Below are positions 9,131-23,888 of a DNA stretch of 64,000 nucleotides, piece by piece. Position numbers and translations under genes: made by a program. Numbering within the stretch: the first letter of the stretch is position 1; each line of letters opens with the position of its first letter. The stretch covers positions 11,880 to 75,879 of the forward strand of contig CAZKFF010000003.1 in NCBI GenBank assembly GCA_964552045.1, given 5' to 3'. The notes below the pieces were generated by a model that did no database searches, was not told the DNA's origin, and saw only the letters and a program-made list of their open reading frames with translations. The DNA is from an uncultured Candidatus Saccharibacteria bacterium (GTDB taxonomy: Bacteria > Patescibacteriota > Minisyncoccia > Phycocordibacterales > UBA918).

Positions 9131-9736
9131 TTATTCCATATCGTCGGTGTCTGTTCCCACCACTTTGCGTATCTGCTTTTTCAATGGCGACGATTTTTGA
9201 CTGGTTCGTTTACGGCTATTGCTTCGGGGACGATATCCGATCAGGAATTCCTGGGGATGTTCGTCCATATCAATGAAATCATCGACTTTCTCTTTGAATT
9301 TCGCTGACGCTGAACGGCCGAAGGTGATACCCTCCACCTGGCAGCCCTGCGACTTCAAATACTCGACCAGTGGCAGGAAATCCCCGTCACCGGTAACGAG
9401 AACGATTGCGTCCACTTTTGCGGACAGCTTGATCGCATCCACAGCGAGTCCCACGTCCCAGTCCGCTTTTTTCGCTCCGCCATAGAAGATCTGCAGATCT
9501 TTGGTCTTGATCTCGATGCCGATCTTTTCCATCGCTTCAAAGAACGGAAGTTCCTCTCCGCTTTCGGTATTGACCACATAGGAGAGCGCACGGATGAGTT
9601 TGCGTCCGCCGAGCGCCGTTTTCAGCACTCCCGCAAAATTGACTTTGCATTTGTAAAGATTCTTCGCGCTGTGATACAGGTTCTGTGTATCAATGAGCAC
9701 GGCTACCCGCTGATCCGGGTGTTTAACTACTGACAT
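9131..9736 (-). CDS. NYN/LabA-like (DUF88) domain protein
   Basis: VAVLIDTQNLYHSAKNL ... VLVTGDGDFLPLVEYLKSQGCQVEGI, typical of the LabA/NYN fold. Lies between rpsO and pnp. Confidence 0.75.
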   Translation of the reverse strand: MSVVKHPDQRVAVLIDTQNLYHSAKNLYKCKVNFAGVLKTALGGRKLIRALSYVVNTESGEELPFFEAMEKIGIEIKTKDLQIFYGGAKKADWDVGLAVDAIKLSAKVDAIVLVTGDGDFLPLVEYLKSQGCQVEGITFGRSASAKFKEKVDDFIDMDEHPQEFLIGYRPRSNSRKRTSQKSSPLKKQIRKVVGTDTDDME

Positions 9737-10247: not shown

Positions 10248-11216
10248 TTGTCAAAAAGCATCGCAAATGTGCCAGGATGCGTGCGTTATACTTATATATG
10301 TATGGATCTGCAGGAGCTCAAACGACAATTTTTGGAATATCTCGAAATAGAACGCGGCCGCAGCGTCAAAACCATTGAAAATTATGACCGTTATCTTGAA
10401 AAATTCCTCGCGTTTGCAAAAGTACAGTCGCCTGCAGATGTAAGCGAGGAGCTGGTGCGCACTTTCAGGCTGTACCTCAACCGCCAGCCGGGAACCAAAA
10501 GTGGCAACCGCACAGAACCGATGAAGCGGCGGACCCAGAACTATTACCTCATCGCAGTGCGTGCATTCCTGAAATATATACGGAAACGGGGCATTGCCTC
10601 CCTCTCCCCTGAGTCCATCGAGCTTGCGAAAGTACCCGAGCGATCGCTCGATCTTATTACAGAACAGGAATTGAGCCGGCTCATGGATGCTCCAAACAAA
10701 GCAAATAGACAGGGACTTCGTGACCGTGCGATCCTCGAACTGCTGTTCTCAACGGGGCTGCGTATTTCGGAGCTGTGCAACCTGTCTGTTGACGATGTCG
10801 ATCTCTCACGCGATGAGTTCTCCGTGCGGGGAAAAGGAGACAAGATCCGCGTTGTCTTTCTTTCCGACAGCGCCAAGGATGCGGTGCGGGCATACCTGCA
10901 GTCACGCAAGGACATGGATGACGCGTTGTTTGTGCAGTATGGGAAAAACGCCAAAGATGCGAAGAGTTTGCGTCTCTCCCCTCGTGCCGTACAGCGTATG
11001 CTCAAAGTTTATGCAGCAACAGCCGGCATCACGCGCAAGGTGACGCCGCACGTCATCCGCCATAGTTTTGCGACCGACCTCTTAAGCAATGGCGCAGACC
11101 TGCGCTCTGTGCAGGCGCTGTTGGGCCACGCGAACATTGGCACGACGCAGATATATACGCATGTCACCGACAAGCACCTGCGCGATGTACACAAGAAATT
11201 TCACGGCCGAAAGTAA
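10248..11216 (+). CDS. xerC: Tyrosine site-specific recombinase XerC/XerD (likely start MDLQELK near 10302)
   Basis: N-terminal core-binding region (LEYLEIERGRSVKTIENYDRYL), catalytic residues R...HVIRHSFATDLL...GHANIGTTQIYTHV with Tyr. Confidence 0.85.
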   Translation: MSKSIANVPGCVRYTYICMDLQELKRQFLEYLEIERGRSVKTIENYDRYLEKFLAFAKVQSPADVSEELVRTFRLYLNRQPGTKSGNRTEPMKRRTQNYYLIAVRAFLKYIRKRGIASLSPESIELAKVPERSLDLITEQELSRLMDAPNKANRQGLRDRAILELLFSTGLRISELCNLSVDDVDLSRDEFSVRGKGDKIRVVFLSDSAKDAVRAYLQSRKDMDDALFVQYGKNAKDAKSLRLSPRAVQRMLKVYAATAGITRKVTPHVIRHSFATDLLSNGADLRSVQALLGHANIGTTQIYTHVTDKHLRDVHKKFHGRK

Positions 11217-11243: not shown

Positions 11244-12050
11244 TTAGAAATAACTGCTTGCACGCAGCTGTTCGCGGAGCTTTATGAGCTCAGGATACCC
11301 GTAGAGGAACCGGACCTTGTCAAAGGATACGCCCCGCTGCTCTGGTTTGTCTGCTGTCACAAAGTAGACGAATGATTCAGCCATGTCCTCTGTTGCGTTG
11401 TTGGCAGCATATTGCGTTATAAAGTCGGAACTTCGCTGCGTGCCTGTCCAAAACTCCTGTTTAAAGTCCGTTTCAATGCTCGGATTGCTGAAAAAGAAAA
11501 TATGGCCATATTCATGCAGGAGCAGCTCCACTACCGATTCGTCGTCATAGATCTCCGAGATCTTATTGCCTTCCCTGTTGAATCCCAAGATCCACGTGTG
11601 ATCTGGCTTCTCTTCGACAAAGGCGCTGATCTGGCTTCGGGTATCGCTATAGATGCGGAATTCGCTGATATCGGCTTTCGCAAACGATGCTCCGGCGATG
11701 TCTATAAGTGTATTCCAGAGAAGCTGATCGCCTGCCCGTACGCCTGCATGTGTTGACGGTATGAGCTTCTTGCCATCCACGAGATAGAGAGCTTCGTACG
11801 TGCCCGTATAAAATTTAGTCTTATAAGAAAACTCAGACGCTTTCGCTTTCTGGCCTTTTGCCTCAAGCAATGCCAGTTGCTTCTGCAGCTTTTCGACCTG
11901 TGTAACTAATATTTCAATGCGGTCGCGTATCGCTGCTTTTTGCGAAGCTGTATATGTCTGTGCGTGGGTAAATGGTGCGGCAGTGAACAAACTGATCACT
12001 ACAAAAAATACAATAAATGGTTTCACGGAATCTACTACGTTCATACCCAT
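11244..12050 (-). CDS. Putative secreted HExxH zinc-metallopeptidase-like protein
   Basis: Signal peptide (FIVFFVVISLFTAAPFTHAQ) and LLLHEYGHIFFF (HExxH). Family not identified. Confidence 0.5.
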   Translation of the reverse strand: MGMNVVDSVKPFIVFFVVISLFTAAPFTHAQTYTASQKAAIRDRIEILVTQVEKLQKQLALLEAKGQKAKASEFSYKTKFYTGTYEALYLVDGKKLIPSTHAGVRAGDQLLWNTLIDIAGASFAKADISEFRIYSDTRSQISAFVEEKPDHTWILGFNREGNKISEIYDDESVVELLLHEYGHIFFFSNPSIETDFKQEFWTGTQRSSDFITQYAANNATEDMAESFVYFVTADKPEQRGVSFDKVRFLYGYPELIKLREQLRASSYF

Positions 12051-12370: not shown

Positions 12371-13162
12371 ATGAAAATCTTTTCCTGGAACGTCAATGGT
12401 ATTCGTGCGGTCATAAAAAAGGGCGAATTTCAGTCGTTTATTAAAAAATACGAGCCCGATGTGTTGTGTCTGCAGGAGACAAAAGCCCAGGAGGGCCAGG
12501 CTGAGCTTGATGTTCCGCACTATGAAGAGTATTGGAATTCCGCAGAGAAGAAAGGATATTCAGGCACAGCCATTTTTACTAAAATACCGCCAAATGAAGC
12601 CATATATGGGATACCGAAGGTTATAACCAAGAAATTCGCACTTCTTGATGACTATGGCGACACCACAACCGAAGGGAGGGTCATAACGCTTGAGTTCGAA
12701 CAGTTGTATGTGACTTCGGTCTACACCCCCAATGCCAAGGATGACCTCTCGCGCATTCCGATGCGCCTGCAGTGGGACCCGGCTTTTCTCACGTTCATGG
12801 CAACCCTTCAAAAAAAGAAGCCAGTTGTCTTCTGCGGCGATCTCAATGTCGCCCATACAGAGATCGATCTTGCCCGCCCGAAAGAAAATGACGGTAAGAA
12901 GGGCTTCACAAAGGAAGAACGTGGGGGAATTGATGCCATGCTCCAGTCGGGTTTCGTCGACACATTCCGGATATTCAATAAGGAGGGCGGCAACTACTCC
13001 TGGTGGTCGGCCTGGGGTGGTGCGCGCGAACGGAATGTCGGCTGGAGGATCGACTACGTGATGGCCTCAGAGACACTTGTCCCGCTCATCAAAAGCGCCC
13101 GCATTCACGCCGATGTAATGGGAAGCGATCACTGTCCGGTTTCAATCGATATTGCTGTGTAA
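12371..13162 (+). CDS. xth: Exodeoxyribonuclease III (AP endonuclease)
   Basis: MKIFSWNVNGIRA...LCLQETK...WRIDYV...GSDHCPV, the full ExoIII motif set. Confidence 0.9.
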   Translation: MKIFSWNVNGIRAVIKKGEFQSFIKKYEPDVLCLQETKAQEGQAELDVPHYEEYWNSAEKKGYSGTAIFTKIPPNEAIYGIPKVITKKFALLDDYGDTTTEGRVITLEFEQLYVTSVYTPNAKDDLSRIPMRLQWDPAFLTFMATLQKKKPVVFCGDLNVAHTEIDLARPKENDGKKGFTKEERGGIDAMLQSGFVDTFRIFNKEGGNYSWWSAWGGARERNVGWRIDYVMASETLVPLIKSARIHADVMGSDHCPVSIDIAV

Positions 13163-13261
13163 CACACGTCAATGAGCGAAAAAACAATCACACGAAAGTA
13201 GATCATGTCAACTATCAGTGTTGAGCACTCAAAAATATGGCTCTACAGAGCCTCATAAACT

Positions 13262-13305
13262 AACTGCACAACGCGTGTCCTTTATAAAGGACACGCGTTG
13301 TGCAG
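13262..13305. repeat. 44-bp perfect palindrome (actgcacaacgcgtgtcctttat|aaaggacacgcgttgtgcagt) containing the TGTCCTTTATAAAGGACA core
   Basis: Read directly. A second inverted pair atgtccttta/taaaggacat lies at about 13328-13357. Confidence 0.6.
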
Positions 13306-13934
13306 TTATGCACAGTTATACACATGCATGTCCTTTACACATTATTATAAAGGACATAGTATATATGCAGGCCCAGAGAGGGCGAGCAGAGGTATCCCAA
13401 GTTCTCTTCTGAAGTTCACCGCTTCACAAAAGAACTTGGGATATTTCACTCAAAGAGTTCATTCAAAACAAAGCGAAGAGAGTAAGATCTCTTCAAGAGT
13501 TAATACCTCCAACTCTAATAGTTCATAACATCCCACCTTTTAAAGCTCACTGTTGCGATGAGTTGCAATGAGGATAAGAACAACCGTTCGCGTCCTCATA
13601 GCAGCTCATACAACAATATGTGAAAAATCTAAAGTACATAGAGCTTTAAACACAACGAGCCACAAAAGCGGAAATCTCAATAAGGAGATGACCACCTTGA
13701 GACAAAGTCTCACCAATAGGCTCATCAATAAGGCCTAGGGCAGTTGCTAGACGATACGATCGCCTACCAACTACCCTAGGTCTTTTTTTTATTTCCAAAC
13801 TTATTTCTGGAACCGGGTTTTCTGCGCATTAAGAAGACGCTCACAGACGGATGTTTATAGTTATCCCCACAATCCAGCAAAAAAGACGCAAAAACTCATG
13901 TTTTTGCGTCTTTTTGGCGGAGTGTCGGACGTTC

Positions 13935-15407
13935 TTAACCCACTCTGTGCTCGCGGGAGATGTCTTTCAGTGCTGCCGCTTCTTCTTCTTCCTGTTTGCG
14001 TTTTCCAGCCTCTGCGAGTTTTTCTAGCTCAGATTCCGGTAGCTCAATGAGCTCTAAAGCCCGCCCTTTTAGGCCATTTTCTGTATTTTTCCCCGGGTTA
14101 TCCAATACCTCTTCCAGTAGTGCGTGCAGTATATATCCCAGCTTTTTCCCCGGCTTTTCCCCAGTGATATCCATAATGGTATCCCCGTCTATTTTGAGCA
14201 TCCGGACAGAGATCGGGTCACGGAGCGCCTGGTCGACCATGGCCTTGTACTGTCTGAAACGGAACGGCTGCTCCTTAGGACGGCCGGTGCCGATGCGGTC
14301 GCAGACGCGGAGGTTGAGGAGATCATCTATATGTTCTTTCCCCACGCGTACAATCGTTCGGCGAACTGCAGAGAGTGTTATCTCTTCCGGATCGGAGAAG
14401 AACATGTGGTTGCGTACCAGTTTTTCGACGATACCTACAGTTTCACGCGGCATTTTCAGTCGCTGCAGTATTTTCTTGGCCATTCGGGCGCCCACGACCT
14501 CATGCCCGTAAAAGGTATATTCTTTGTTTTTGCCGCCGGTGCGGCGGGTTGCAGGCTTTCCTATATCGTGGAGCAGTGCGGCAAGGCGAAGTTCGGTTGA
14601 AAAACCCTTATCTGCTGCGGCCTGAAGCGTGCGCAGGATGTGCTCATAGACATCAAATGCGTGCGCGCCTCCCTGCTGACAGCCGATCCCCTCTGTGATC
14701 TCTGGAATGATGTGCTCGATGAGCCCGAGGCGCTCCAAGAGCACGATGCCCTGCATCGGGGTCGCACTATTGATGATTCGAATGAACTCCTCAGCAATGC
14801 GCTCAGAAGAAATACGGCTCAGATTATGGGCATTTCGAGTAATCGACTGCAGGGTCTCTGACTCGATGGCAAAATTGAGCTCCGCAGCAAGACGTACCGC
14901 GCGCATCATGCGCAACGCGTCTTCGCCAAAGCGCTCATCGGGTTCTCCTACGGTTTTAAGCCGTTTTTTTGCGATATCACTGACACCGTCAAACAGGTCG
15001 GTGATCTTTTCATCTCTGATGCTGAATGCGATGGCATTGACTGTGAAATCACGTCGTTGGAGGTCTTCTTCCAGCGACACGCCGAAGGTCACAGAATCGG
15101 GACGCCGCGCATCGCTGTAGCCGGATTCGCTCCGGTATGGTGTCACCTCAATAACCTTGAGGGTAGGGTCTTCCGTATCATCAATAACCACGCCGACCGT
15201 ACCGTAGTCATTGTTGCAGTATGTTTCAGGGAAGAGACCCTCAATCTCCTCGGGGTGCGCATCGGTCGTGATATCCCAGTCTTTGGGGGTCTTGCCAATA
15301 AGGATATCCCGCACGCATCCGCCGATGAGGTACGCTTCAAAACCCGCTTTGTGCAGGGTGTCGGAGACATACTGTACTTCCTTGGGGATGTCATTACGGA
15401 CGATCAT
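13935..15407 (-). CDS. cca: CCA-adding tRNA nucleotidyltransferase with HD domain
   Basis: GGCVRDILIG...DWDITT...RRDFTVNAIA (pol beta-like NTase) and an HD domain (LLHDIGK). Adjacent to a tRNA gene. Confidence 0.85.
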   Translation of the reverse strand: MIVRNDIPKEVQYVSDTLHKAGFEAYLIGGCVRDILIGKTPKDWDITTDAHPEEIEGLFPETYCNNDYGTVGVVIDDTEDPTLKVIEVTPYRSESGYSDARRPDSVTFGVSLEEDLQRRDFTVNAIAFSIRDEKITDLFDGVSDIAKKRLKTVGEPDERFGEDALRMMRAVRLAAELNFAIESETLQSITRNAHNLSRISSERIAEEFIRIINSATPMQGIVLLERLGLIEHIIPEITEGIGCQQGGAHAFDVYEHILRTLQAAADKGFSTELRLAALLHDIGKPATRRTGGKNKEYTFYGHEVVGARMAKKILQRLKMPRETVGIVEKLVRNHMFFSDPEEITLSAVRRTIVRVGKEHIDDLLNLRVCDRIGTGRPKEQPFRFRQYKAMVDQALRDPISVRMLKIDGDTIMDITGEKPGKKLGYILHALLEEVLDNPGKNTENGLKGRALELIELPESELEKLAEAGKRKQEEEEAAALKDISREHRVG

Positions 15408-18025: not shown

Positions 18026-18691
18026 ATGATACGTTTAGAGGAACAGTATGAGCAGGCACTGCAATTCCGCAGGCGGGGGTTCACTTATTCTGAGATCGCG
18101 AAGATCGTCGGTGTGTCGAAGAGTTCAGTAAGCGCGTGGGTCTCGAAGAAACCATTTTCAAAAAAGATACGGGCAGAAAACGCCGCCCGCGCTGCACGTG
18201 AAAATGTAAAACGTATCGGCCTGATCAACAAGGCCCGTGCCGCTGAACGAAAAGCGCGATATGCGGAAGCGAAGCGAAGCGCTGAAACTGAATTCACACA
18301 TTACAAAAAAGATCCGCTTTTCATCGCCGGACTCATGGCGTACGCGAGCGCGGGCGATCGTGCAGTTGATTCCCGGATCCGCCTTACTTCGCCTGACGCA
18401 TTCCTTCAGAGGACGTTCCTGCAGTTTGCTCTTGCGTATCTTGGCGCTGAAAAGAACCGGATACATTTTTGGCTGCTTTTGTATGCCGGCCACAATGAAA
18501 AGAAGTGTCTTTCATTCTGGGCAAAGACTACTCGTCTCTCGCTTGCCCAGTTCCACAAATCCCAATTTGTTTCCCAGCGGGCAAAAGCGGGAGGATTGCA
18601 ACATGGCACCGGAAATACTATAATCGGCAGCACTGTTCTGAAGCTGAGATTGCTGCGATGGATCGAACTTCTGCAGAAAGAACTTTCATAA
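18026..18691 (+). CDS. Hypothetical helix-turn-helix DNA-binding protein
   Basis: N-terminal RGFTYSEIAKIVGVSKSSVSAWV is an HTH. The rest is unassigned. Confidence 0.5.
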   Translation: MIRLEEQYEQALQFRRRGFTYSEIAKIVGVSKSSVSAWVSKKPFSKKIRAENAARAARENVKRIGLINKARAAERKARYAEAKRSAETEFTHYKKDPLFIAGLMAYASAGDRAVDSRIRLTSPDAFLQRTFLQFALAYLGAEKNRIHFWLLLYAGHNEKKCLSFWAKTTRLSLAQFHKSQFVSQRAKAGGLQHGTGNTIIGSTVLKLRLLRWIELLQKELS

Positions 18692-18846: not shown

Positions 18847-19275
18847 TCACTTCACCTCGAACAGGAGAACTTTAGGCATTATTCCTGCTGCTCTGCACAC
18901 CATAAGACGCGTATTTCCAGAAACTAAATGGTACCCCTCGGCATGTTTGTATATAATTGGCGCACTGATTGATCTCCCTGCATCAAGATCATCTTTGTAG
19001 CCTCTCCATTCCCGGTCTGCTTGGCGTGATAATGCATCAACCTTATCCCACTGCCCTGCTTCGATATCTTTTGAGTCAGTATTTTCTAGTTGATCCCATA
19101 TCGATGGGTCAAGGAGTACCATAGTGCCGCCTTCTGCTGCAAACAAGAGGTCCAGAGTTGTCATGTTGAACAATGCACCTACGCGTTCAAACTCACCATG
19201 TTCTTTTTCGAGAATTGGGTACTTGAACTGGTTACTTTTTTGTTCAAAGGACTCCATGCGATTATTATAGCTCAT
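18847..19275 (-). CDS. Hypothetical protein (about 142 aa from MSYNNRMESF; RBS ggagagg upstream)
   Basis: ORF with a reasonable RBS. No recognisable domain. Confidence 0.45.
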   Translation of the reverse strand: MSYNNRMESFEQKSNQFKYPILEKEHGEFERVGALFNMTTLDLLFAAEGGTMVLLDPSIWDQLENTDSKDIEAGQWDKVDALSRQADREWRGYKDDLDAGRSISAPIIYKHAEGYHLVSGNTRLMVCRAAGIMPKVLLFEVK

Positions 19276-19316
19276 GCCATAACCTCTCCTCACTTTAATC
19301 TGTTATCATACTCACC

Positions 19317-20471
19317 ATGTCACGAGTTGCGATTTCGGAGTACGCGGCCAAGAAGCTCATTCTTGGCGAGGCGTATACGGGTATTACGGTTACACATGAA
19401 ACCATTGATGATGCTGTTTCTCAACTGGCAGATAGCAGAAAATATATCATCAAAATTGACGTTGGTATAAAAAAACGCGGAAAACAGGGCCTTATTTGGC
19501 TCAATGTCAGCAGATCTGATGCCAAAAAAGCGATACAGGAACTTTTTGACCTTGGGCACGGCCGTTGCGTGATCGAGGAGATGGTTCCACATGAAACCAA
19601 CGATGAGCGTTATGTGAGCATTGATCTGCAGCGGGAAGGGGCTTTGGTCCTGTATTCACACAAGGGCGGCGTCGAAATTGAAGATAATGCTGCGGAAATG
19701 CAGCGTTTTTCTGCACCACGCGCAGAAGTCCTTGCCGGGGAAACGACCCTTGTTACCCCCGATGTTCCGCTCAATTTCCTTTTGCGCGCCATGCAGCAGT
19801 TCCACTTCTCCTTTCTCGAGATCAATCCTTTCGTGGCTCTCAATAAAGATTTTCTGCCACTCGATATGGCTGTAGAGATTGATGATGCGAAAGCAGGCAG
19901 ATTGCCACAGTGGGCGCAGTCGCACATCATCAAGAAAGCTGATACTCCAGAGGAAAAGGCGGTACAGGCACAGGACGAGACCACTGCGGCAGCTTTGACT
20001 TTGAAGATACTCAATATAAATGGCTCTATTCTCACTCTTTTGTCGGGCGGCGGCGCGAGTCTGGTCACGATTGATGCGCTTGTGACGGCAGGACTACAGG
20101 AAAAAATCATTAACTATAGCGAGTACAGTGGTGCCCCGACACGTGATGAGACCCATGCATATGTGCATACCCTTTTAAAGGTTTTGTTTGCTTCAGAAGC
20201 ATCAAAAAAAGTTGTGCTCATTGCAGGGGGCGTCGCTAACTTTACCGATATTATGGCCACCTTTGAGGGCATTGTTGATGCTTTTACTGAGAATCTTGCG
20301 GAACTGAAGCGTCAGCACGTCTACGTCTGTGCTCGTCGCGGCGGCCCCAATCAGGAAAAGGGCCTTTCGCATTTGCGCAATTTCCTTGCGGAAAATGGTA
20401 TAGCGCATGATATTCATGATCCCTCCCTTTCGCTGGGTGATATTGCAACACTCGTGACACCACATCTATAG
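19317..20471 (+). CDS. aclB: ATP-citrate lyase small subunit (ATP-grasp, SucC-like)
   Basis: Collinear with ACLY N-terminus: MSRVAISEYAAKKLIL; IIKIDVGIKKRGKQGLIWLN; SHKGGVEIED; FLEINPFV; LLSGGGASLV; NYSEYSGAPT; VLIAGGVANFT; ARRGGPNQEKGL. Confidence 0.85.
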   Translation: MSRVAISEYAAKKLILGEAYTGITVTHETIDDAVSQLADSRKYIIKIDVGIKKRGKQGLIWLNVSRSDAKKAIQELFDLGHGRCVIEEMVPHETNDERYVSIDLQREGALVLYSHKGGVEIEDNAAEMQRFSAPRAEVLAGETTLVTPDVPLNFLLRAMQQFHFSFLEINPFVALNKDFLPLDMAVEIDDAKAGRLPQWAQSHIIKKADTPEEKAVQAQDETTAAALTLKILNINGSILTLLSGGGASLVTIDALVTAGLQEKIINYSEYSGAPTRDETHAYVHTLLKVLFASEASKKVVLIAGGVANFTDIMATFEGIVDAFTENLAELKRQHVYVCARRGGPNQEKGLSHLRNFLAENGIAHDIHDPSLSLGDIATLVTPHL

Positions 20472-20474
20472 ACT

Positions 20475-22196
20475 ATGATCAATATAATACGTGAAAAAGA
20501 GGCTAAAATAGTGGTTGCAGGCAACCATACAAAGATCATGCAATCCATTTTGGACTTTGATTATGCCGCAGGGAAAGCTCAGCCGAGTATAGTGGGCATT
20601 ATTTCAACGGGACGGAAAACCCAAAAGCTCTTCTGGGGTGATGGTGAGGTTCTCATTCCCGTATTTGAAACAGTAGAGTCGTCAAAAAAACTCGGAATAG
20701 AGCCAGATTTTCTGCTGTGTATCACTTCAGCCTCGAGCACACCCGTTATGGTTGATGCGTTTTTCACTGCATATCCCGATGCGCTCGGTGCGCACCTCTT
20801 TGCTGAAGGCGTGGCAGAGCGTGACGCCTTGTCGATCATTGAAAAATACGGAGATAAGCTCATTGCCGGCCCCTCAGGAGTCGGTCTGTGTATACCGGGA
20901 AGCCTGAAATTAGGTGCCGTTGGCGGTATTTTGGGAGAACGGCTTGCACAATTGGGATCCACCCGTGGATCGGTTGCAGTCGTGTGCAGTTCCGGCGGCA
21001 TGGTCAATGAGCTCATGTATCAGATAGTTGCCTCAGGTTCAGCGATCAGTTTCGCTACTGCTTTCGGTGGCGACCGTTTCCCCATCACTTCTCCACTCGA
21101 GTGGATCACAGAAGCCGAACATGACCCTGAAACAAAAGCGATCGTTTATTTCGGCGAGCTCGGCGGACGCGATGAGTACGATATTGTGGCTGCAATCAAG
21201 AATAAAGAGCTTACAAAGCCTGTTTTTGCCTATATAGCGGGACGTTTTGAGTCAAAGGATGAGAAGATCCAGTTCGGTCATGCCAAGGCTCTGGCTAAGG
21301 CCGAAGATGAAACCGCACAAGCAAAGATGGAAGCGCTCCGCAACGCCGGAGTGCATGTCAGCGATACCTTCGCTGAGTTCATGGCCTCGTTCGCTTCCCT
21401 TCCGAAGGATGTTACACGTGTAACAAACGCTCGGGAGTGGACCATGCGCAGAGCTTCTGTACGCCCGACTCATTTTTCTGCTCGAAAATACACTGGGGAA
21501 CAGGCTCCCAGCTTTACCGAGGCTATTATGCAGCGAATTCTTGGGAAAGAGACGGTTTCACGAGAAACAGTCGCGTTTGTGGATACAATTTTCGCTGAAC
21601 TTATCGACCATGGGCCTGCGGTCTCTGGCGCAGTAAATACTATGATCACCGCTCGGGCTGGCAGAGATATGGGCGCGAGCATTGCTTCGGGGATCCTCAC
21701 CATCGGTGACCGGTTCGGCGGTGCGATCAACAATGCGGCAAAAGTGTGGCATGAATCTGTTTCACATGGAACTTCCCCTCTTGATCTTGTAGCAACCTAC
21801 AGTAAGAATCGAGAATATATTCCTGGGATTGGCCATAAAAAATACAGCATTTATAAACCTGATCCTCGCGTAAGAACGTTTATTGAAGCTGGGAAACAGG
21901 CTCTGCGATACGCAAAGCACATGCAATTTGCCGAAGAAGTTGCACGTGAAACATCAAAAAAGCGGGCAAATCTTATATTAAATGTAGATGGAACCATTGC
22001 GGCGCTGCTTCTTGACTACCTATCTGAAAAGGAAATGTTCGACGTGGAACAAATTGAAGCGCTGCTTGAAATTGAATTCTTTAATTCACTCTTTATTATT
22101 CCCCGAACGGTAGGGTTTGTTGGACACTATCTCGACCAAAAGCGCATAGATGAAGGATTATTCCGGCTCGGCGATGGCGATATCTACGAGTATTAG
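20475..22196 (+). CDS. aclA: ATP-citrate lyase large subunit (CoA-binding/SucD-like domain with phospho-His, plus a C-terminal citrate-synthase-like citryl-CoA lyase domain)
   Basis: SucD-like VVCSSGGMVNELMYQ...FGGDRFP...FGHAKAL (catalytic His). C-terminus DHGPAVSGAVNTMITARAGRD...GIGHKKYSIYKPDPRV...ANLILNVDG...VGFVGHYLDQKRIDEGLFR closely matches the ACLY C-terminus. Confidence 0.85.
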   Translation: MINIIREKEAKIVVAGNHTKIMQSILDFDYAAGKAQPSIVGIISTGRKTQKLFWGDGEVLIPVFETVESSKKLGIEPDFLLCITSASSTPVMVDAFFTAYPDALGAHLFAEGVAERDALSIIEKYGDKLIAGPSGVGLCIPGSLKLGAVGGILGERLAQLGSTRGSVAVVCSSGGMVNELMYQIVASGSAISFATAFGGDRFPITSPLEWITEAEHDPETKAIVYFGELGGRDEYDIVAAIKNKELTKPVFAYIAGRFESKDEKIQFGHAKALAKAEDETAQAKMEALRNAGVHVSDTFAEFMASFASLPKDVTRVTNAREWTMRRASVRPTHFSARKYTGEQAPSFTEAIMQRILGKETVSRETVAFVDTIFAELIDHGPAVSGAVNTMITARAGRDMGASIASGILTIGDRFGGAINNAAKVWHESVSHGTSPLDLVATYSKNREYIPGIGHKKYSIYKPDPRVRTFIEAGKQALRYAKHMQFAEEVARETSKKRANLILNVDGTIAALLLDYLSEKEMFDVEQIEALLEIEFFNSLFIIPRTVGFVGHYLDQKRIDEGLFRLGDGDIYEY

Positions 22197-22259: not shown

Positions 22260-22452
22260 GTACCCGAGTGTACTCTTGGGTTGGGGAAAATTGTTGATAA
22301 GTCGGTGGATATGTGTATAAAGGACAGACCTTTATGGTATACTCGTCCTATAATGCAGCCAATATTTTCTTGATATTATTAGGATTGCGTATGCATTAAT
22401 ACTCTAGTTGGATGTAATTTCAGGTTTCACGTGAAACGTCCACGAGCTTACT

Positions 22453-22857
22453 ATGACTCAGTCATACACCACAAAGGAGATTGGAATATTGGGTGAGAAG
22501 ATCACTGCATTGTTTCTCATGAAACGAGGGTTTACCATTCTGGAACGCAACTACTGGAGAAAATGGGGGGAACTTGATCTGGTTGCCTCAAAAGACGGTA
22601 TGGTACATTTTATAGAGGTAAAGACTGCTTCATATGAATCGAGAGAAAAGCTTGAGTATGCTGTTTCCCATGAAACATGGCGGCCGGAAGAACGTGTGCA
22701 TCAGTTTAAGATCCACCAGATACATAAGGCTCTTGAAACATGGACCATGGATAATGCCTTTGAAGGGGAATGGGTCATTGATGTGGCCGCTGTTCGGGTT
22801 GTGCCACGTGAAACATACGCGTCCGTACGTTTTATCGAAAATATAGTGCAGGAATGA
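22453..22857 (+). CDS. yraN: YraN/UPF0102-family endonuclease-like protein
   Basis: GILGEKITALFLMKRGFTILERNYWRKWGELDLVASKDGMVHFIEVKTAS matches the YraN family signature (G..GE..A..YL...G..IL.RN.R...GEIDLIA...FVEVK). Confidence 0.7.
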   Translation: MTQSYTTKEIGILGEKITALFLMKRGFTILERNYWRKWGELDLVASKDGMVHFIEVKTASYESREKLEYAVSHETWRPEERVHQFKIHQIHKALETWTMDNAFEGEWVIDVAAVRVVPRETYASVRFIENIVQE

Positions 22858-22866
22858 GCTGCGCAG

Positions 22867-22892
22867 CTATAAAGGACATATGTCCTTTATAG
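22867..22892. repeat. 26-bp perfect palindrome ctataaaggacatatgtcctttatag immediately after the yraN stop
   Basis: Read directly. Shares the TAAAGGACA half-site with the 13262 and 13328 palindromes and with a copy overlapping a -10-like TATAAA at about 22316-22335. Confidence 0.6.
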
Positions 22893-23888
22893 CGAGGAAG
22901 CCAACGGGGGAGTCACGATCTCTTTACCGGCGCCGATATCGTCTTCATCCTGTATCTCGTACTGAATGATCTCTTCAATGATATCTTCAAGGGTGATCAC
23001 CCCGACGCACGCATCTTCTGTGGTATATACCACCGCCAGGTGTCGTTTTTGTTTAAGCATCCGTGAAAGCACCTCATCAAGCAGCTGATGAGCCCGTACC
23101 TTGAGAAATCTTCGTTCGAACGCCGCTTCAGTATCTTTGACCGCAATATCCTCATCCTCAACAAGGAGGTCTTTGGTATACAAAATACCTATGATATTAG
23201 CTCTTCTTTTTTGATAGATAGGGTAGCGGGAGTAGCCAAGATTTGCAGCCTCCTCGATAAAAGCACGCGTAAGCCGCTGCTCACAATCAAACATGGCAAC
23301 CGCATCAAGCGGAGTCATGACCTCAGACACTTTCCGGTGGGAGAATTTCAGTGCGCCGTGCAAAATACGTTCCTCATCGGCATCTATGGGGCTGTGTTCA
23401 GATTCCTCATGTTCAGAAATAATGTGCATGAGTTCGTTCTTGCTGTACATGCGCGGCAATTCATTCCCAAGGACCATATCTAAAATATAGGAAATAGGCC
23501 ATGCAACAGGGTAGAATACGAATATTGCCAGACGCACCAGGGGAGAGGCAAGGGCGCACAACCGCATGGCGTGGCGGGAGAAGATGGCCTGCGGCGTGAT
23601 CTCTCCAAAGACGAAAATAACTGCCGTAGCAATAAATCCTGCGGCAACACTCTCAAAAAGCGTTCCAAGATAGACCGCCAGGGCGGTGTTCACGGTTACG
23701 TTCCCAAGAAGCAGCGTTGTAAGCAACAGATTTCCCCTTTGTCGCAAAGGGTAGATCTTCGCCGCCTGGGTGTCGCCAAGTTCCGCCCGGCGCTTAAGCG
23801 TGTGCGGATCGAAGGTAAAAAGCCCAAGGGTCAAGCCGGAGAAGAGGGCCGAGAGGGAAATAAGCACGAGTGCTATAAGGTAGTCCAT
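22887..23888 (-). CDS. CNNM/CorC-family transporter (DUF21 TM domain, CBS pair, CorC-HlyC domain)
   Basis: N-terminal 4-TM DUF21 region, then CBS-like segments and a C-terminal transporter-associated domain (HLAVVYTTEDACVGVITLEDIIEEI). Confidence 0.8.
   Translation of the reverse strand: MDYLIALVLISLSALFSGLTLGLFTFDPHTLKRRAELGDTQAAKIYPLRQRGNLLLTTLLLGNVTVNTALAVYLGTLFESVAAGFIATAVIFVFGEITPQAIFSRHAMRLCALASPLVRLAIFVFYPVAWPISYILDMVLGNELPRMYSKNELMHIISEHEESEHSPIDADEERILHGALKFSHRKVSEVMTPLDAVAMFDCEQRLTRAFIEEAANLGYSRYPIYQKRRANIIGILYTKDLLVEDEDIAVKDTEAAFERRFLKVRAHQLLDEVLSRMLKQKRHLAVVYTTEDACVGVITLEDIIEEIIQYEIQDEDDIGAGKEIVTPPLASSL

Follow-up and report, generated by a model that had tools for sequence, protein, structure and literature searches.

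Several described systems bear on the element examined here. In Firmicutes, small RNAs (sRNAs) with C-rich loops, such as RsaE/RoxS and the hairpins of Staphylococcus aureus RNAIII, pair with Shine-Dalgarno (SD) regions and block translation. Promoters regulated by DnaA are exemplified by those of dnaA, nrdAB and sda. A DnaA-regulated promoter is also reported for gidA, located within oriCII of Pseudomonas aeruginosa (PMC13438810). A further related system is CcnA of Caulobacter crescentus, a noncoding RNA (ncRNA) that is encoded at the origin among regulator boxes and whose CCCC loop binds GGGG sequences in the ctrA and gcrA leaders (PMC8959179). Here we describe a stretch of 64,000 nucleotides (hereafter, the window; positions 11,880 to 75,879 of contig CAZKFF010000003.1, assembly GCA_964552045.1) from an uncultured, ultra-small Candidatus Saccharibacteria bacterium, in which a 770-bp gap separates the convergent genes xth (ExoIII-type nuclease; 12371-13162, plus strand) and cca (CCA-adding enzyme; 13935-15407, minus strand). 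This gap is no spacer: it holds the gene of a conserved, heavily folded ncRNA of about 422 nt (approximately 13369-13790, plus strand), whose 5' end was placed by promoter geometry and the onset of conservation and whose 3' end is a U-run. The element is probably a new structured ncRNA of Kaiserbacteria-like Patescibacteria under the putative control of DnaA and of a protein that would bind a recurrent 9-bp motif (TAAAGGACA, or TGTCCTTTA when read on the opposite strand).

Like the CcnA gene, this RNA gene would lie in or next to an origin region (a candidate one in the present case) among putative sites for cell-cycle or initiation regulators, and its product offers a C-rich loop (CCUCC, compared with CCCC in CcnA) suited to pairing with G-rich 5'-untranslated regions or SD sequences. 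The two differ in their boxes, which are CtrA boxes in Caulobacter and DnaA-box-like 9-mers together with the 9-bp motif here, and in architecture, the present RNA being far more elaborate, with multiple domains and lengths of 290-570 nt across relatives. The taxa are different and no homology of sequence or structure was detected between the two RNAs, and the resemblance may be taken as an analogy of mechanism, not as membership of one family. RsaE/RoxS and RNAIII likewise carry conserved C-rich motifs in hairpin loops or single strands, but they are shorter or have an unrelated fold, and their Rfam models do not match the RNA described here. The large RNAs OLE, ROOL, GOLLD and raiA resemble it in size, in having several covarying helices, variable expansion hairpins and conserved unpaired stretches, in being restricted to one bacterial lineage and in having one copy per genome; they differ in that their covariance models do not match it and in that the xth/cca neighborhood and the promoter with DnaA-box-like sequences are particular to the present gene. 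As in DnaA-regulated promoters, the box-like 9-mers stand directly upstream of the -35 element and close to a candidate origin/parS region, whereas the product is an ncRNA and the putative boxes are bracketed by a second conserved motif. Literature searches on the motif, on origins and on ncRNAs of the Candidate Phyla Radiation (CPR) returned no description of this RNA or of the motif. The gene represents a new RNA family of a familiar kind, i.e., a bacterial ncRNA that runs from promoter to terminator, and what is unusual is its promoter with DnaA-box-like sequences and its location.

The locus is conserved well beyond the window. The closest named relatives of the cca protein belong to Candidatus Kaiserbacteria and the "Patescibacteria group", and a scan with this protein over one genome per GTDB species yielded 14 loci from Kaiserbacteria, Paceibacterota and Parcubacteria-type metagenome-assembled genomes (MAGs). 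All 14 keep the convergent order of xth, gap and cca, with gaps of 424-1874 bp, which are large for otherwise densely packed genomes, and in these loci the most conserved DNA is the promoter block and the start of the RNA. Additionally, a search of metagenomes with the pattern TGTCCTTTAC-N26-34-AGGYCCARNRAGGGC returned at least 120 stretches with one copy per locus; the pooled set comprises 135 instances among the matches listed, 121 of them unique, and the counts over unique loci given below are drawn from this set. Among the unique loci in the matches listed, xth is found upstream in 108 of 118 and cca downstream in 104 of 118. The layout shared by the gaps of the window and the 14 syntenic loci begins, in the 5' to 3' direction, with what is usually a palindrome with the core TGTCCTTTATAAAGGACA, followed by one or two DnaA-box-like 9-mers (consensus TTATNCACA) and by the invariant TGTCCTTTAC, which ends in a -35-like TTTACA; a 17-nt spacer, usually containing TAAAGGACA, then leads to a TAnnnT -10 element. 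The strongly conserved CAGGYCCAGARAGGGC starts 6-7 nt past the -10 element, after which conserved blocks alternate with hairpins of variable length until a long hairpin (consensus AAAGGCCUGAGGG...CCCCCAGGCC) and a T-run close the unit. Such a layout is that of a stand-alone gene, equipped with a promoter and an intrinsic terminator of its own. We take a conserved, single-copy gene for a structured ncRNA, with a conserved promoter arrangement, as demonstrated.

In the window, a consensus scan called a sigma-70-type promoter on the plus strand with the -35 hexamer TTTACA (13334-13339), a 17-nt spacer and the -10 hexamer TAGTAT (13357-13362), and every one of the 14 syntenic loci keeps this geometry. 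TGTCCTTTAC shows no variation across the window and the 14 loci seeded with the cca protein. Its distance to the RNA start is fixed in 116 of the 121 unique promoters, and 119 of the 121 carry TAnnnT at the -10 position. The half-site TGTCCTTTA (13329-13337, i.e., TAAAGGACA on the minus strand) overlaps the -35 hexamer, and a second half-site, TAAAGGACA (13348-13356, plus strand), lies in the spacer and abuts the -10 hexamer; the latter is present with at most one mismatch in 77 of the 121 unique promoters and absent (five or more mismatches) in 32. The two half-sites belong to the inverted pair that the original prediction had located at 13328-13357 and that was recovered with 10-nt arms (13328-13337 and 13348-13357) around a 10-nt gap. 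Directly upstream stand two DnaA-box-like 9-mers in tandem on the plus strand: TTATGCACA (13306-13314), an exact match to TTATNCACA, and, 10 bp from it, TTATACACA (13316-13324). Allowing one mismatch, such 9-mers occur at least once in 107 of the 114 unique loci whose upstream sequence is long enough, and their starts cluster almost entirely at 23 and 13 nt ahead of TGTCCTTTAC (76 cases at 22-24 nt and 76 at 12-14 nt), which therefore defines a tandem pair of boxes with 10-bp phasing. Their commonest forms in the promoters are TTATGCACA, TTATACACA, TTATCCCCA and TTATCCACA. Counted from the deduced start, the boxes occupy -63 to -45, the half-sites -40 to -32 and -21 to -13, and the palindromic core approximately -93 to -76. 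Upstream activators, or DnaA acting as a repressor, sit at -63 to -45 in known promoters, and, judging from general knowledge of promoters, a protein bound to both half-sites would overlap RNA polymerase.

The RNA encoded downstream of this promoter is strongly folded. Its minimum free energy (MFE) in the window is -157.5 kcal/mol, compared with -86.3 +/- 5.6 in shuffles (z = -12.8), and the frequent G-U pairs of the covarying helices fix the plus strand as the one transcribed. The 5' hairpin P1 (GCCC-AGAGA-GGGC; 13371-13383) is 100% paired and, because it is nearly invariant, provides no evidence from covariation. It is followed by P2 (13388-13447), a long hairpin of variable length in which 22 of 24 pairs show compensatory changes in a MAFFT alignment of 45 diverse 5' domains. 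A 9-bp stem with a 27-nt loop, previously noted at 13396-13440, is indeed present within P2 but constitutes only the outer part of a hairpin with 22-nt arms that are 91% complementary (13393-13443). Taken together, P1 and P2 have 89.5% of their cells paired, and sliding the partner column lowers this to 28-54%. Doubly changed cells number 180, versus 50 +/- 6.5 in shuffled alignments, and none of 500 shuffles reached the observed values. The terminal hairpin behaves likewise: among 60 aligned members, 13 of 15 pairs show a compensatory change, 83.8% of cells are paired versus 31-61% with the partner column slid, and 97 cells are doubly changed versus 32 +/- 4.5 in shuffled alignments. Plain MAFFT combined with RNAalifold yielded only fragments of structure, as the variable hairpins shift the register; the structures of P1/P2 and of the terminal hairpin were therefore written by hand from one row, and pairs were counted on the MAFFT alignments.

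Between these two ends, conserved unpaired stretches alternate with further hairpins, all on the plus strand. The consensus of 85 unique RNAs and an alignment of members define a conserved, mostly unpaired stretch, CCUUAAAGAGnUCnUUCnAAA (13448-13470), after which an extra hairpin (13475-13494) represents a lineage-specific insertion that is found in the alignment only in the window and in its closest relatives (L017, L052, L005 and L104). Hairpin P3 (13496-13516) follows, with a loop that shows UAAUACCUCC and includes the anti-SD-like CCUCC at 13506-13510. The stems of P3 fall into the classes GAGUU/AACUC, UUAGA/UCUAA, GAAUU/AAUUC and UAGUA/UACUA, and cognate flanks pair over 6.06 bp on average versus 4.80 bp for non-cognate ones, reaching at least 6 bp in 79% versus 31% of cases. 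P3 is succeeded by a second conserved unpaired stretch from the same consensus and alignment, GUUCAUAACAUCCCACC (13521-13537), by a variable middle domain (13539-13650) that forms one long branched hairpin in the window and differs in length and shape among relatives, and by a 3' domain (13657-13723) that is closed by the helix GAGCC/GGCUC and carries C-rich CACC(C) stretches beside its hairpins. MFE folds of 10 members suggest equivalent closing helices of differing sequence (GAGCUAU/AUAGCUC, GAAGC/GCUUC, GAGUCG/CGACUC and GAGCUU/AAGCUC). The gene ends in a long terminal hairpin with conserved internal mismatches and 29-nt arms, which, together with its T8, occupies 13727-13790; the original prediction had placed this terminator-like element at approximately 13733-13790, and it was found with the hairpin at 13727-13787 and the T8 at 13783-13790. 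This hairpin is an intrinsic terminator and probably also a structural domain, and in nearly all loci listed it is followed by a T-run (T4-T9).

The same MFE folds yield a common architecture, in which P1 and the variable P2 are followed by the unpaired CCUUAAAGAGnUC... stretch, P3 with its (A/U)UACCUCCAAA loop, the unpaired GUUCAUAACAUCCCACC, the variable middle domain, a 3' domain closed by GAGCN/NGCUC with a sequence that differs by member, and the terminal hairpin. In a subgroup of longer loci (L056, L075, L089, L116, L125, L137, L019 and L027; approximately 500-585 nt from the start), the terminator finder chose a short G+C hairpin (e.g., AAAATCGCCCGATCC...GGCGATTTTTT) in place of the AAAGGCC-type terminal hairpin, and these loci may represent a structural subfamily or contain a second small downstream element. 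Collectively, the conserved promoter, the terminal hairpin, the covariation, the conserved synteny and the lack of a conserved open reading frame (ORF; see below) strongly support the suggestion, made in passing in the original prediction, that the region could host an unrecognised ncRNA.

The 9-bp motif extends beyond this promoter. In the window, TAAAGGACA occurs seven times over both strands, versus 0.33 +/- 0.55 in 100 dinucleotide shuffles, none of which reached seven, and the enrichment concerns the exact 9-mer, because allowing one mismatch removes the excess (16 observed versus 8.2 expected). Over 810 kb of unique loci, 324 exact copies fall in the promoter block and 117 outside it, compared with approximately 8 expected from base composition, and many of the outside copies are fused to clusters of DnaA boxes. 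All three exact matches to TTATNCACA in the window touch the motif. Half-sites are arranged as inverted (gap of 0 or 10), everted (gap of 2 or 11) or direct pairs, and a 9-bp monomer site that is often paired fits better than a dimer operator of fixed spacing because these spacings vary. The idea of a recurrent operator or promoter-associated motif stands in a weaker form, as far as half-sites fixed over the -35 hexamer and the spacer, and an 18-bp palindrome approximately 50 bp upstream, are concerned, but no single half-site spacing accompanies it. A palindromic repeat family, also considered in the original prediction, finds no support: there are only three clusters (seven half-sites within 10 kb) in the 64 kb, all at conserved orthologous positions. 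A DNA-uptake sequence was rejected on the same count of three clusters, and an extended -35 element for RNA polymerase was rejected, as no -10 hexamer stands at the appropriate distance from the majority of the other copies. Comparison of the 18-bp core with viral contigs gave six matches, judged to be at about chance level and uninformative.

Several further motif copies deserve mention. In many relatives, the C-terminus of cca (window 13940-13990) contains ALKDI codons that spell cTAAAGGACAtt, whereas the window copy is degenerate (AAAGACATC); the motif copies in these codons are a coincidence of coding. In some loci, a further noncoding copy directly follows the cca stop codon, and L009 and L013 have tandem 18-bp palindromes made up of other copies. 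Variable hairpins inside the RNA can also carry the 9-mer, or a portion of the palindrome, at their apex, i.e., at the tip of P2 in L014, in L072 and L128, in the terminal loop of L086 and in the middle domain of L010 and L013; these apical copies are either extra sites that are tolerated or selected, or sequences spread by local hairpin-templated copying. As for a protein that could bind the motif, one guess, made on position only, is a 221-aa protein (18026-18691) with an N-terminal helix-turn-helix (HTH) domain similar to HTH_23 or sigma-70 region 4 and a C-terminal domain that was not recognised, the gene of which is followed by a transfer RNA (tRNA) gene, tRNA-Gly. It is conserved approximately 3.3 kb from the RNA promoter, adjoining a second motif-bearing site (Site 2; see below), in 35 loci, and searches of Pfam, NCBIfam and the PDB returned only the generic N-terminal HTH.

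Upstream of the boxes lies P0 (13261-13308), a perfect palindrome of 48 bp with 24-nt arms and no spacer, the last 3 nt of which overlap the first box; a perfect palindrome had been claimed here with a length of 44 bp (13262-13305), which is real but shorter than the symmetry actually present. The 18-bp core of P0, TGTCCTTTATAAAGGACA, occupies 13276-13293 in the window, and 64 of 115 unique loci carry it with no more than three mismatches, in most cases starting 52-53 nt ahead of TGTCCTTTAC; the outer arms are lineage-specific. Extension of the core is limited to 3 bp or less in 39 of the 64 loci and is perfect over at least 7 bp (7-16 bp more) in 23, each with different outer arms. In several loci the right arm of P0 runs into the first DnaA box and the left arm is its mirror image, and in the window P0 ends at 13308, three bases into the box. 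We infer hairpin-templated strand switching (quasi-palindrome correction) from the perfect Watson-Crick symmetry, the absence of G-U pairs and the lack of shared arm sequence; the long outer arms would fit this process rather than selection for an RNA stem or for protein contact. Judging from their sequence and position, the palindromes themselves appear to be conserved cis-acting DNA control sites in or just upstream of the RNA promoter.

The commonest noncoding context of the motif is a second conserved site, 3-6 kb beyond cca, with two to four box-like 9-mers in the TGTGNATAA orientation. Its order is boxes, the last of them fused to the motif (TGTGGATAAAGGACA), then approximately 120 nt of 70% A+T DNA with an extended -10 element (TGnTATACT), and then parS-like sites. 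In the window this Site 2 (22292-22326, plus strand) lies upstream of yraN, which follows it in 29 loci, and consists of three DnaA-box-like 9-mers (TGTTGATAA, GTGGATA and TGTGTATAA), the last fused to TAAAGGACA. The original prediction had noted here a TTGATA followed after 16 nt by TATAAA; these elements are present (22294-22321), but their reading as a plain promoter misses the run of three boxes (22292-22320) that is fused to the motif. The fused arrangement TGTGGATAAAGGACA occurs in 18 loci with one to three strict boxes (two or three in 17 of the 18) besides degenerate ones, the 120 nt past it are 70% A+T versus 57.5% further upstream in these loci, and at least 13 of the 18 have a parS-like site within 320 nt. 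Four parS-like sites (GTTnCACGTGnAAC) fall within a 1.4-kb segment of the window (21411-21424, 21939-21952, 22424-22437 and 22803-22816), two of them inside an ATP-citrate-lyase-like gene (20475-22196) and one, TTTCACGTGAAAC (22425-22437), just before the yraN start codon. Clusters of parS normally mark the origin-proximal part of a chromosome. The window sequence at 22292-22437, in which boxes fused to the motif are followed by AT-rich DNA with the extended -10 element TGGTATACT and TATAAT and then by parS, is a candidate oriC or a candidate DnaA-controlled yraN promoter. Together, the box clusters, the AT-rich DNA, the four parS-like sites, a shallow skew minimum and a change in ORF orientation suggest that the segment from 13 to 23 kb is origin-proximal.

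This raises the alternative that survives best, namely that the block upstream of the RNA (Site 1) is part of oriC, possibly bipartite with Site 2, and not primarily a promoter. The tandem boxes and the AT-rich TGTCCTTTACACATTATTATAAAGGACATAGTATATAT would then form a basal unwinding module, the RNA would be embedded in the origin or help to activate it, and an origin-organising protein would bind at the 9-mer. Indeed, the tandem TTATNCACA boxes point towards the AT-rich stretch, which is the orientation of Escherichia coli box R1 relative to the unwinding element and of the box pair for basal unwinding in Bacillus subtilis, and the second box cluster, with its 70% A+T DNA and parS sites, is 3-9 kb away. 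Additionally, cumulative GC skew across the window reaches its minimum at approximately 14-15 kb (with a shallow left arm), and most long ORFs left of approximately 10 kb use the minus strand, while most of those beyond approximately 16 kb use the plus strand. However, Site 1 has only two strong boxes, the AT-rich stretch shows a near-universal promoter geometry (-10 in 119 of 121, with fixed spacing), and no convincing run of DnaA-trio repeats was recognised by eye. GC skew in 4-kb windows gives no clear change of sign, a 64-kb stretch being too short for skew to decide the matter. Likewise, no dnaA was found among the Pfam-scanned ORFs of the window (9-26 kb) and no DnaA signature in any of the approximately 120 loci, bearing in mind that adjacency of oriC to dnaA/dnaN is common but not universal. 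The origin alternative is therefore a possibility that we take seriously while holding it to be doubtful, and it is largely compatible with control of an ncRNA promoter by DnaA and a motif-binding protein.

Less plausible, and in our view rather improbable, is that the palindromes are transcription terminators or other RNA-level 3'-end hairpins of xth, yraN and tRNA genes, with the core as a favoured hairpin tip and not a protein site. P0 does lie downstream of xth, and a perfect palindrome with everted half-sites (TAAAGGACA-TA-TGTCCTTTA; 22866-22893) lies between the convergent yraN and CNNM/CBS genes; the latter had been reported as a 26-bp palindrome (22867-22892) immediately after yraN and is there, with a length of 28 bp. 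In L011 and L012, moreover, the motif caps a hairpin that has A-runs and T-runs on its flanks and directly follows a tRNA gene, and 23 loci have P0 outer arms that are perfectly complementary yet locus-specific. Against this, neither the half-sites over the -35 hexamer and spacer nor the copies fused to DnaA boxes stand at gene 3' ends, no T-run follows P0 in the window, and 39 of the 64 loci with a core lack palindromic extension beyond 3 bp. Terminator stems normally do not keep an 18-nt sequence across genes and genomes, and perfect Watson-Crick symmetry without G-U pairs points to a process at the DNA level.

That the RNA could be a very divergent housekeeping RNA missed by Rfam models, i.e., RNase P RNA, transfer-messenger RNA (tmRNA), signal recognition particle (SRP) RNA or 6S RNA, is very improbable. 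Its gene is single-copy and syntenic, lengths of 300-570 nt overlap the sizes of RNase P RNA and tmRNA, and CPR RNAs are, from general knowledge, often atypical. Nevertheless, Rfam 15 gave no family match for the window at gathering score, for 13000-14100 at E <= 10, for any of the 14 syntenic loci or, at E <= 0.5, for 10 additional members, these searches returning only tRNAs and spurious hairpin matches to microRNA models, and ARAGORN found four tRNAs and no tmRNA in the window. The check for tmRNA, 6S RNA and RNase P RNA that had been proposed with the original prediction was thus negative in both Rfam and ARAGORN. In all four families the 5' and 3' ends of the RNA pair with each other, whereas in MFE folds of the window RNA and of 10 members the 5' end is engaged in the local P1 and the 3' end in the local terminal hairpin. 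Inspection of the consensus by eye also found no RNase P P4/CR-I GGAAAGUCC, no SRP GGAA tetraloop helix and no tRNA-like 3' end.

The remaining alternative, that the region encodes one or more small proteins, such as that of the 56-aa ORF at 13568-13738, and that the structure belongs to an mRNA, was rejected as extremely unlikely: ORFs of 40-76 aa do occur on both strands and the 56-aa ORF stops exactly at the terminal hairpin, inside the terminator stem, but the three ORFs tested have no Pfam match, L017, the closest relative, is alone in matching the 56-aa ORF, no sense frame is conserved over 85 members (the median longest sense ORF is 28 aa, without a common position), and the covariation of the helices is that of an RNA. 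Across the promoter, each of two overlapping frames finds matches in approximately 87 loci, and conservation there is therefore at the level of DNA and not of protein. The description of the region as ORF-free thus needs qualification, as ORFs of up to 76 aa exist in the gap but none is conserved as a reading frame, while its AT-richness was borne out (41% G+C versus 52% across the window). Taken as a whole, the sequence features listed in the original prediction were all found, with small corrections.

The preferred reading, an ncRNA under control of DnaA and a motif-binding protein, can now be set out as a sequence of steps. The RNA would be transcribed from the sigma-70-type promoter (TTTACA, 17-nt spacer, TAGTAT) and end at the long hairpin and U8. 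DnaA and a putative protein specific for TGTCCTTTA/TAAAGGACA would set the rate of its transcription, and the level of the RNA would thereby be tied to the state of replication initiation. The same putative protein may also mark the region of DnaA boxes, AT-rich DNA and parS upstream of yraN. That the conserved layout serves as a regulatory module to which DnaA and a protein specific for the 9-mer bind, the latter also marking the DnaA-box/parS site at yraN, is a proposition that we regard as evenly poised. The gene, its structure, the promoter layout and the conservation of all three are shown, whereas DnaA binding, a protein for the motif, the sign of any regulation and the role of the RNA are inferred.

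A number of observations weigh against this reading or narrow its basis. The transcript and its start site are themselves deductions from the promoter and the pattern of conservation. The pattern used in the metagenome search requires the left half-site within TGTCCTTTAC and the RNA 5' end, so that unbiased evidence for these two elements comes from the 14 protein-seeded loci only. Neither the spacer half-site nor the core is indispensable, because the former is absent in approximately one quarter of promoters and the latter in 44% of loci, and the heterogeneous half-site arrangements speak against a simple dimer operator. About a quarter (approximately 32) of the 117 motif copies outside the promoter block lie in coding sequence, many of them being the ALKDI codons near the cca C-terminus, and copies at the tips of terminator-like hairpins or within RNA hairpins are not predicted by a purely DNA-level regulatory model. 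On the side of RNA structure, the evidence for P3 is weaker than that for P2: a free stem search with a naive shuffle control did not discriminate, since 81% of shuffles also yield stems of at least 5 bp, and cognate flanks were compared with non-cognate ones in its place. Finally, a search of the window for an mRNA target complementary to the P3 loop gave nothing beyond chance or generic SD sequences.

As to what the RNA does, it could act in trans via exposed C-rich strands, the clearest of which is UACCUCCAAA in the P3 loop. The CCUCC of this loop would mimic the anti-SD end of 16S ribosomal RNA (rRNA), and other C-rich strands are CCCACC and CACCCA. Such strands might pair with G-rich sequences of the SD type, or bind and titrate a factor that recognises the 3' end of 16S rRNA. 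That the RNA works through its C-rich strands in either way is speculative, and we would assign it a low probability.

Some features of the locus and its surroundings lie outside the ncRNA gene. A small G+C-rich hairpin, GGCTCTACAGAGCC (13239-13252), stands 3' of xth and is called terminator-like on the minus strand by the scan; it may be the terminator of xth or of a minus-strand transcript, and a related hairpin is found at the equivalent position in several syntenic loci. On the other side, between the RNA gene and cca, a third DnaA-box-like 9-mer, TTATCCCCA (13861-13869, plus strand; one mismatch to TTATCCACA), precedes a hairpin with 19-nt arms that are 95% complementary, placed between A-runs and T-runs (13877-13918). 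This hairpin is likely the terminator of cca on the minus strand and could act bidirectionally. The unit of box and hairpin (13851-13918), in which GTTTATAGTTATCCCCACAA is followed by AAAAGACGCAAAAAC...GTTTTTGCGTCTTTTT, is common to the closest relatives L005, L017 and L087. To the left of the locus, genes for a tyrosine recombinase of the XerC/D type (10248-11216) and for an NYN-domain protein (9131-9736) are syntenic in approximately 10 longer related loci. To the right, the block at 18847-22196 contains a 148-aa ORF and two genes similar to ATP-citrate lyase or citryl-CoA synthetase (Citrate_bind, Citrate_synt and Ligase_CoA domains), a gene pair that represents unusual metabolism for a CPR genome. 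With matches to its genes in only one to three of 118 loci, and with its position between Site 2 on one side and the HTH gene and tRNA-Gly on the other, this block looks like an insertion. Additionally, four Logan contigs (L001-L004; SRR11843815, SRR11843836, SRR11843827 and SRR11843830) carry an identical xth and all stop 47-128 nt past its stop codon. Two of them, L002 and L003, which are public short-read assemblies of the same organism, break inside the 48-bp palindrome, 128 nt past the xth stop; because the palindrome breaks assemblies, the RNA gene is probably under-represented in fragmented MAGs.

CPR bacteria, or Patescibacteria, make up a large share of bacterial diversity and have tiny genomes with little noncoding DNA, and most of them are uncultured. 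To our knowledge, almost nothing has been described of their regulatory RNAs or of their replication control. An RNA of 300-570 nt with several covarying domains, which over 100 independent assemblies retain at a single syntenic position, likely has an important role. Its promoter provides a concrete, testable link to DnaA, and the recurrent 9-mer offers a handle for finding a new DNA-binding factor that would also mark the DnaA-box/parS region. The locus likewise suggests a candidate position for the origin, so far uncharacterised in these genomes, and the P0 series constitutes a natural set of palindromes grown around a fixed core. Combining these elements, it is conceivable, if unlikely in every part at once, that the origin region of Paceibacteria holds an RNA gene with a promoter composed of DnaA boxes and a lineage-specific 9-bp site for an origin protein, that the anti-SD-like CCUCC loop and other C-rich strands of the RNA act on translation or on maturation of the 16S rRNA 3' end, and that the palindromes are by-products of strand switching. 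If this were true, replication initiation would be coupled to ribosome function in cells with minimal regulatory repertoires.

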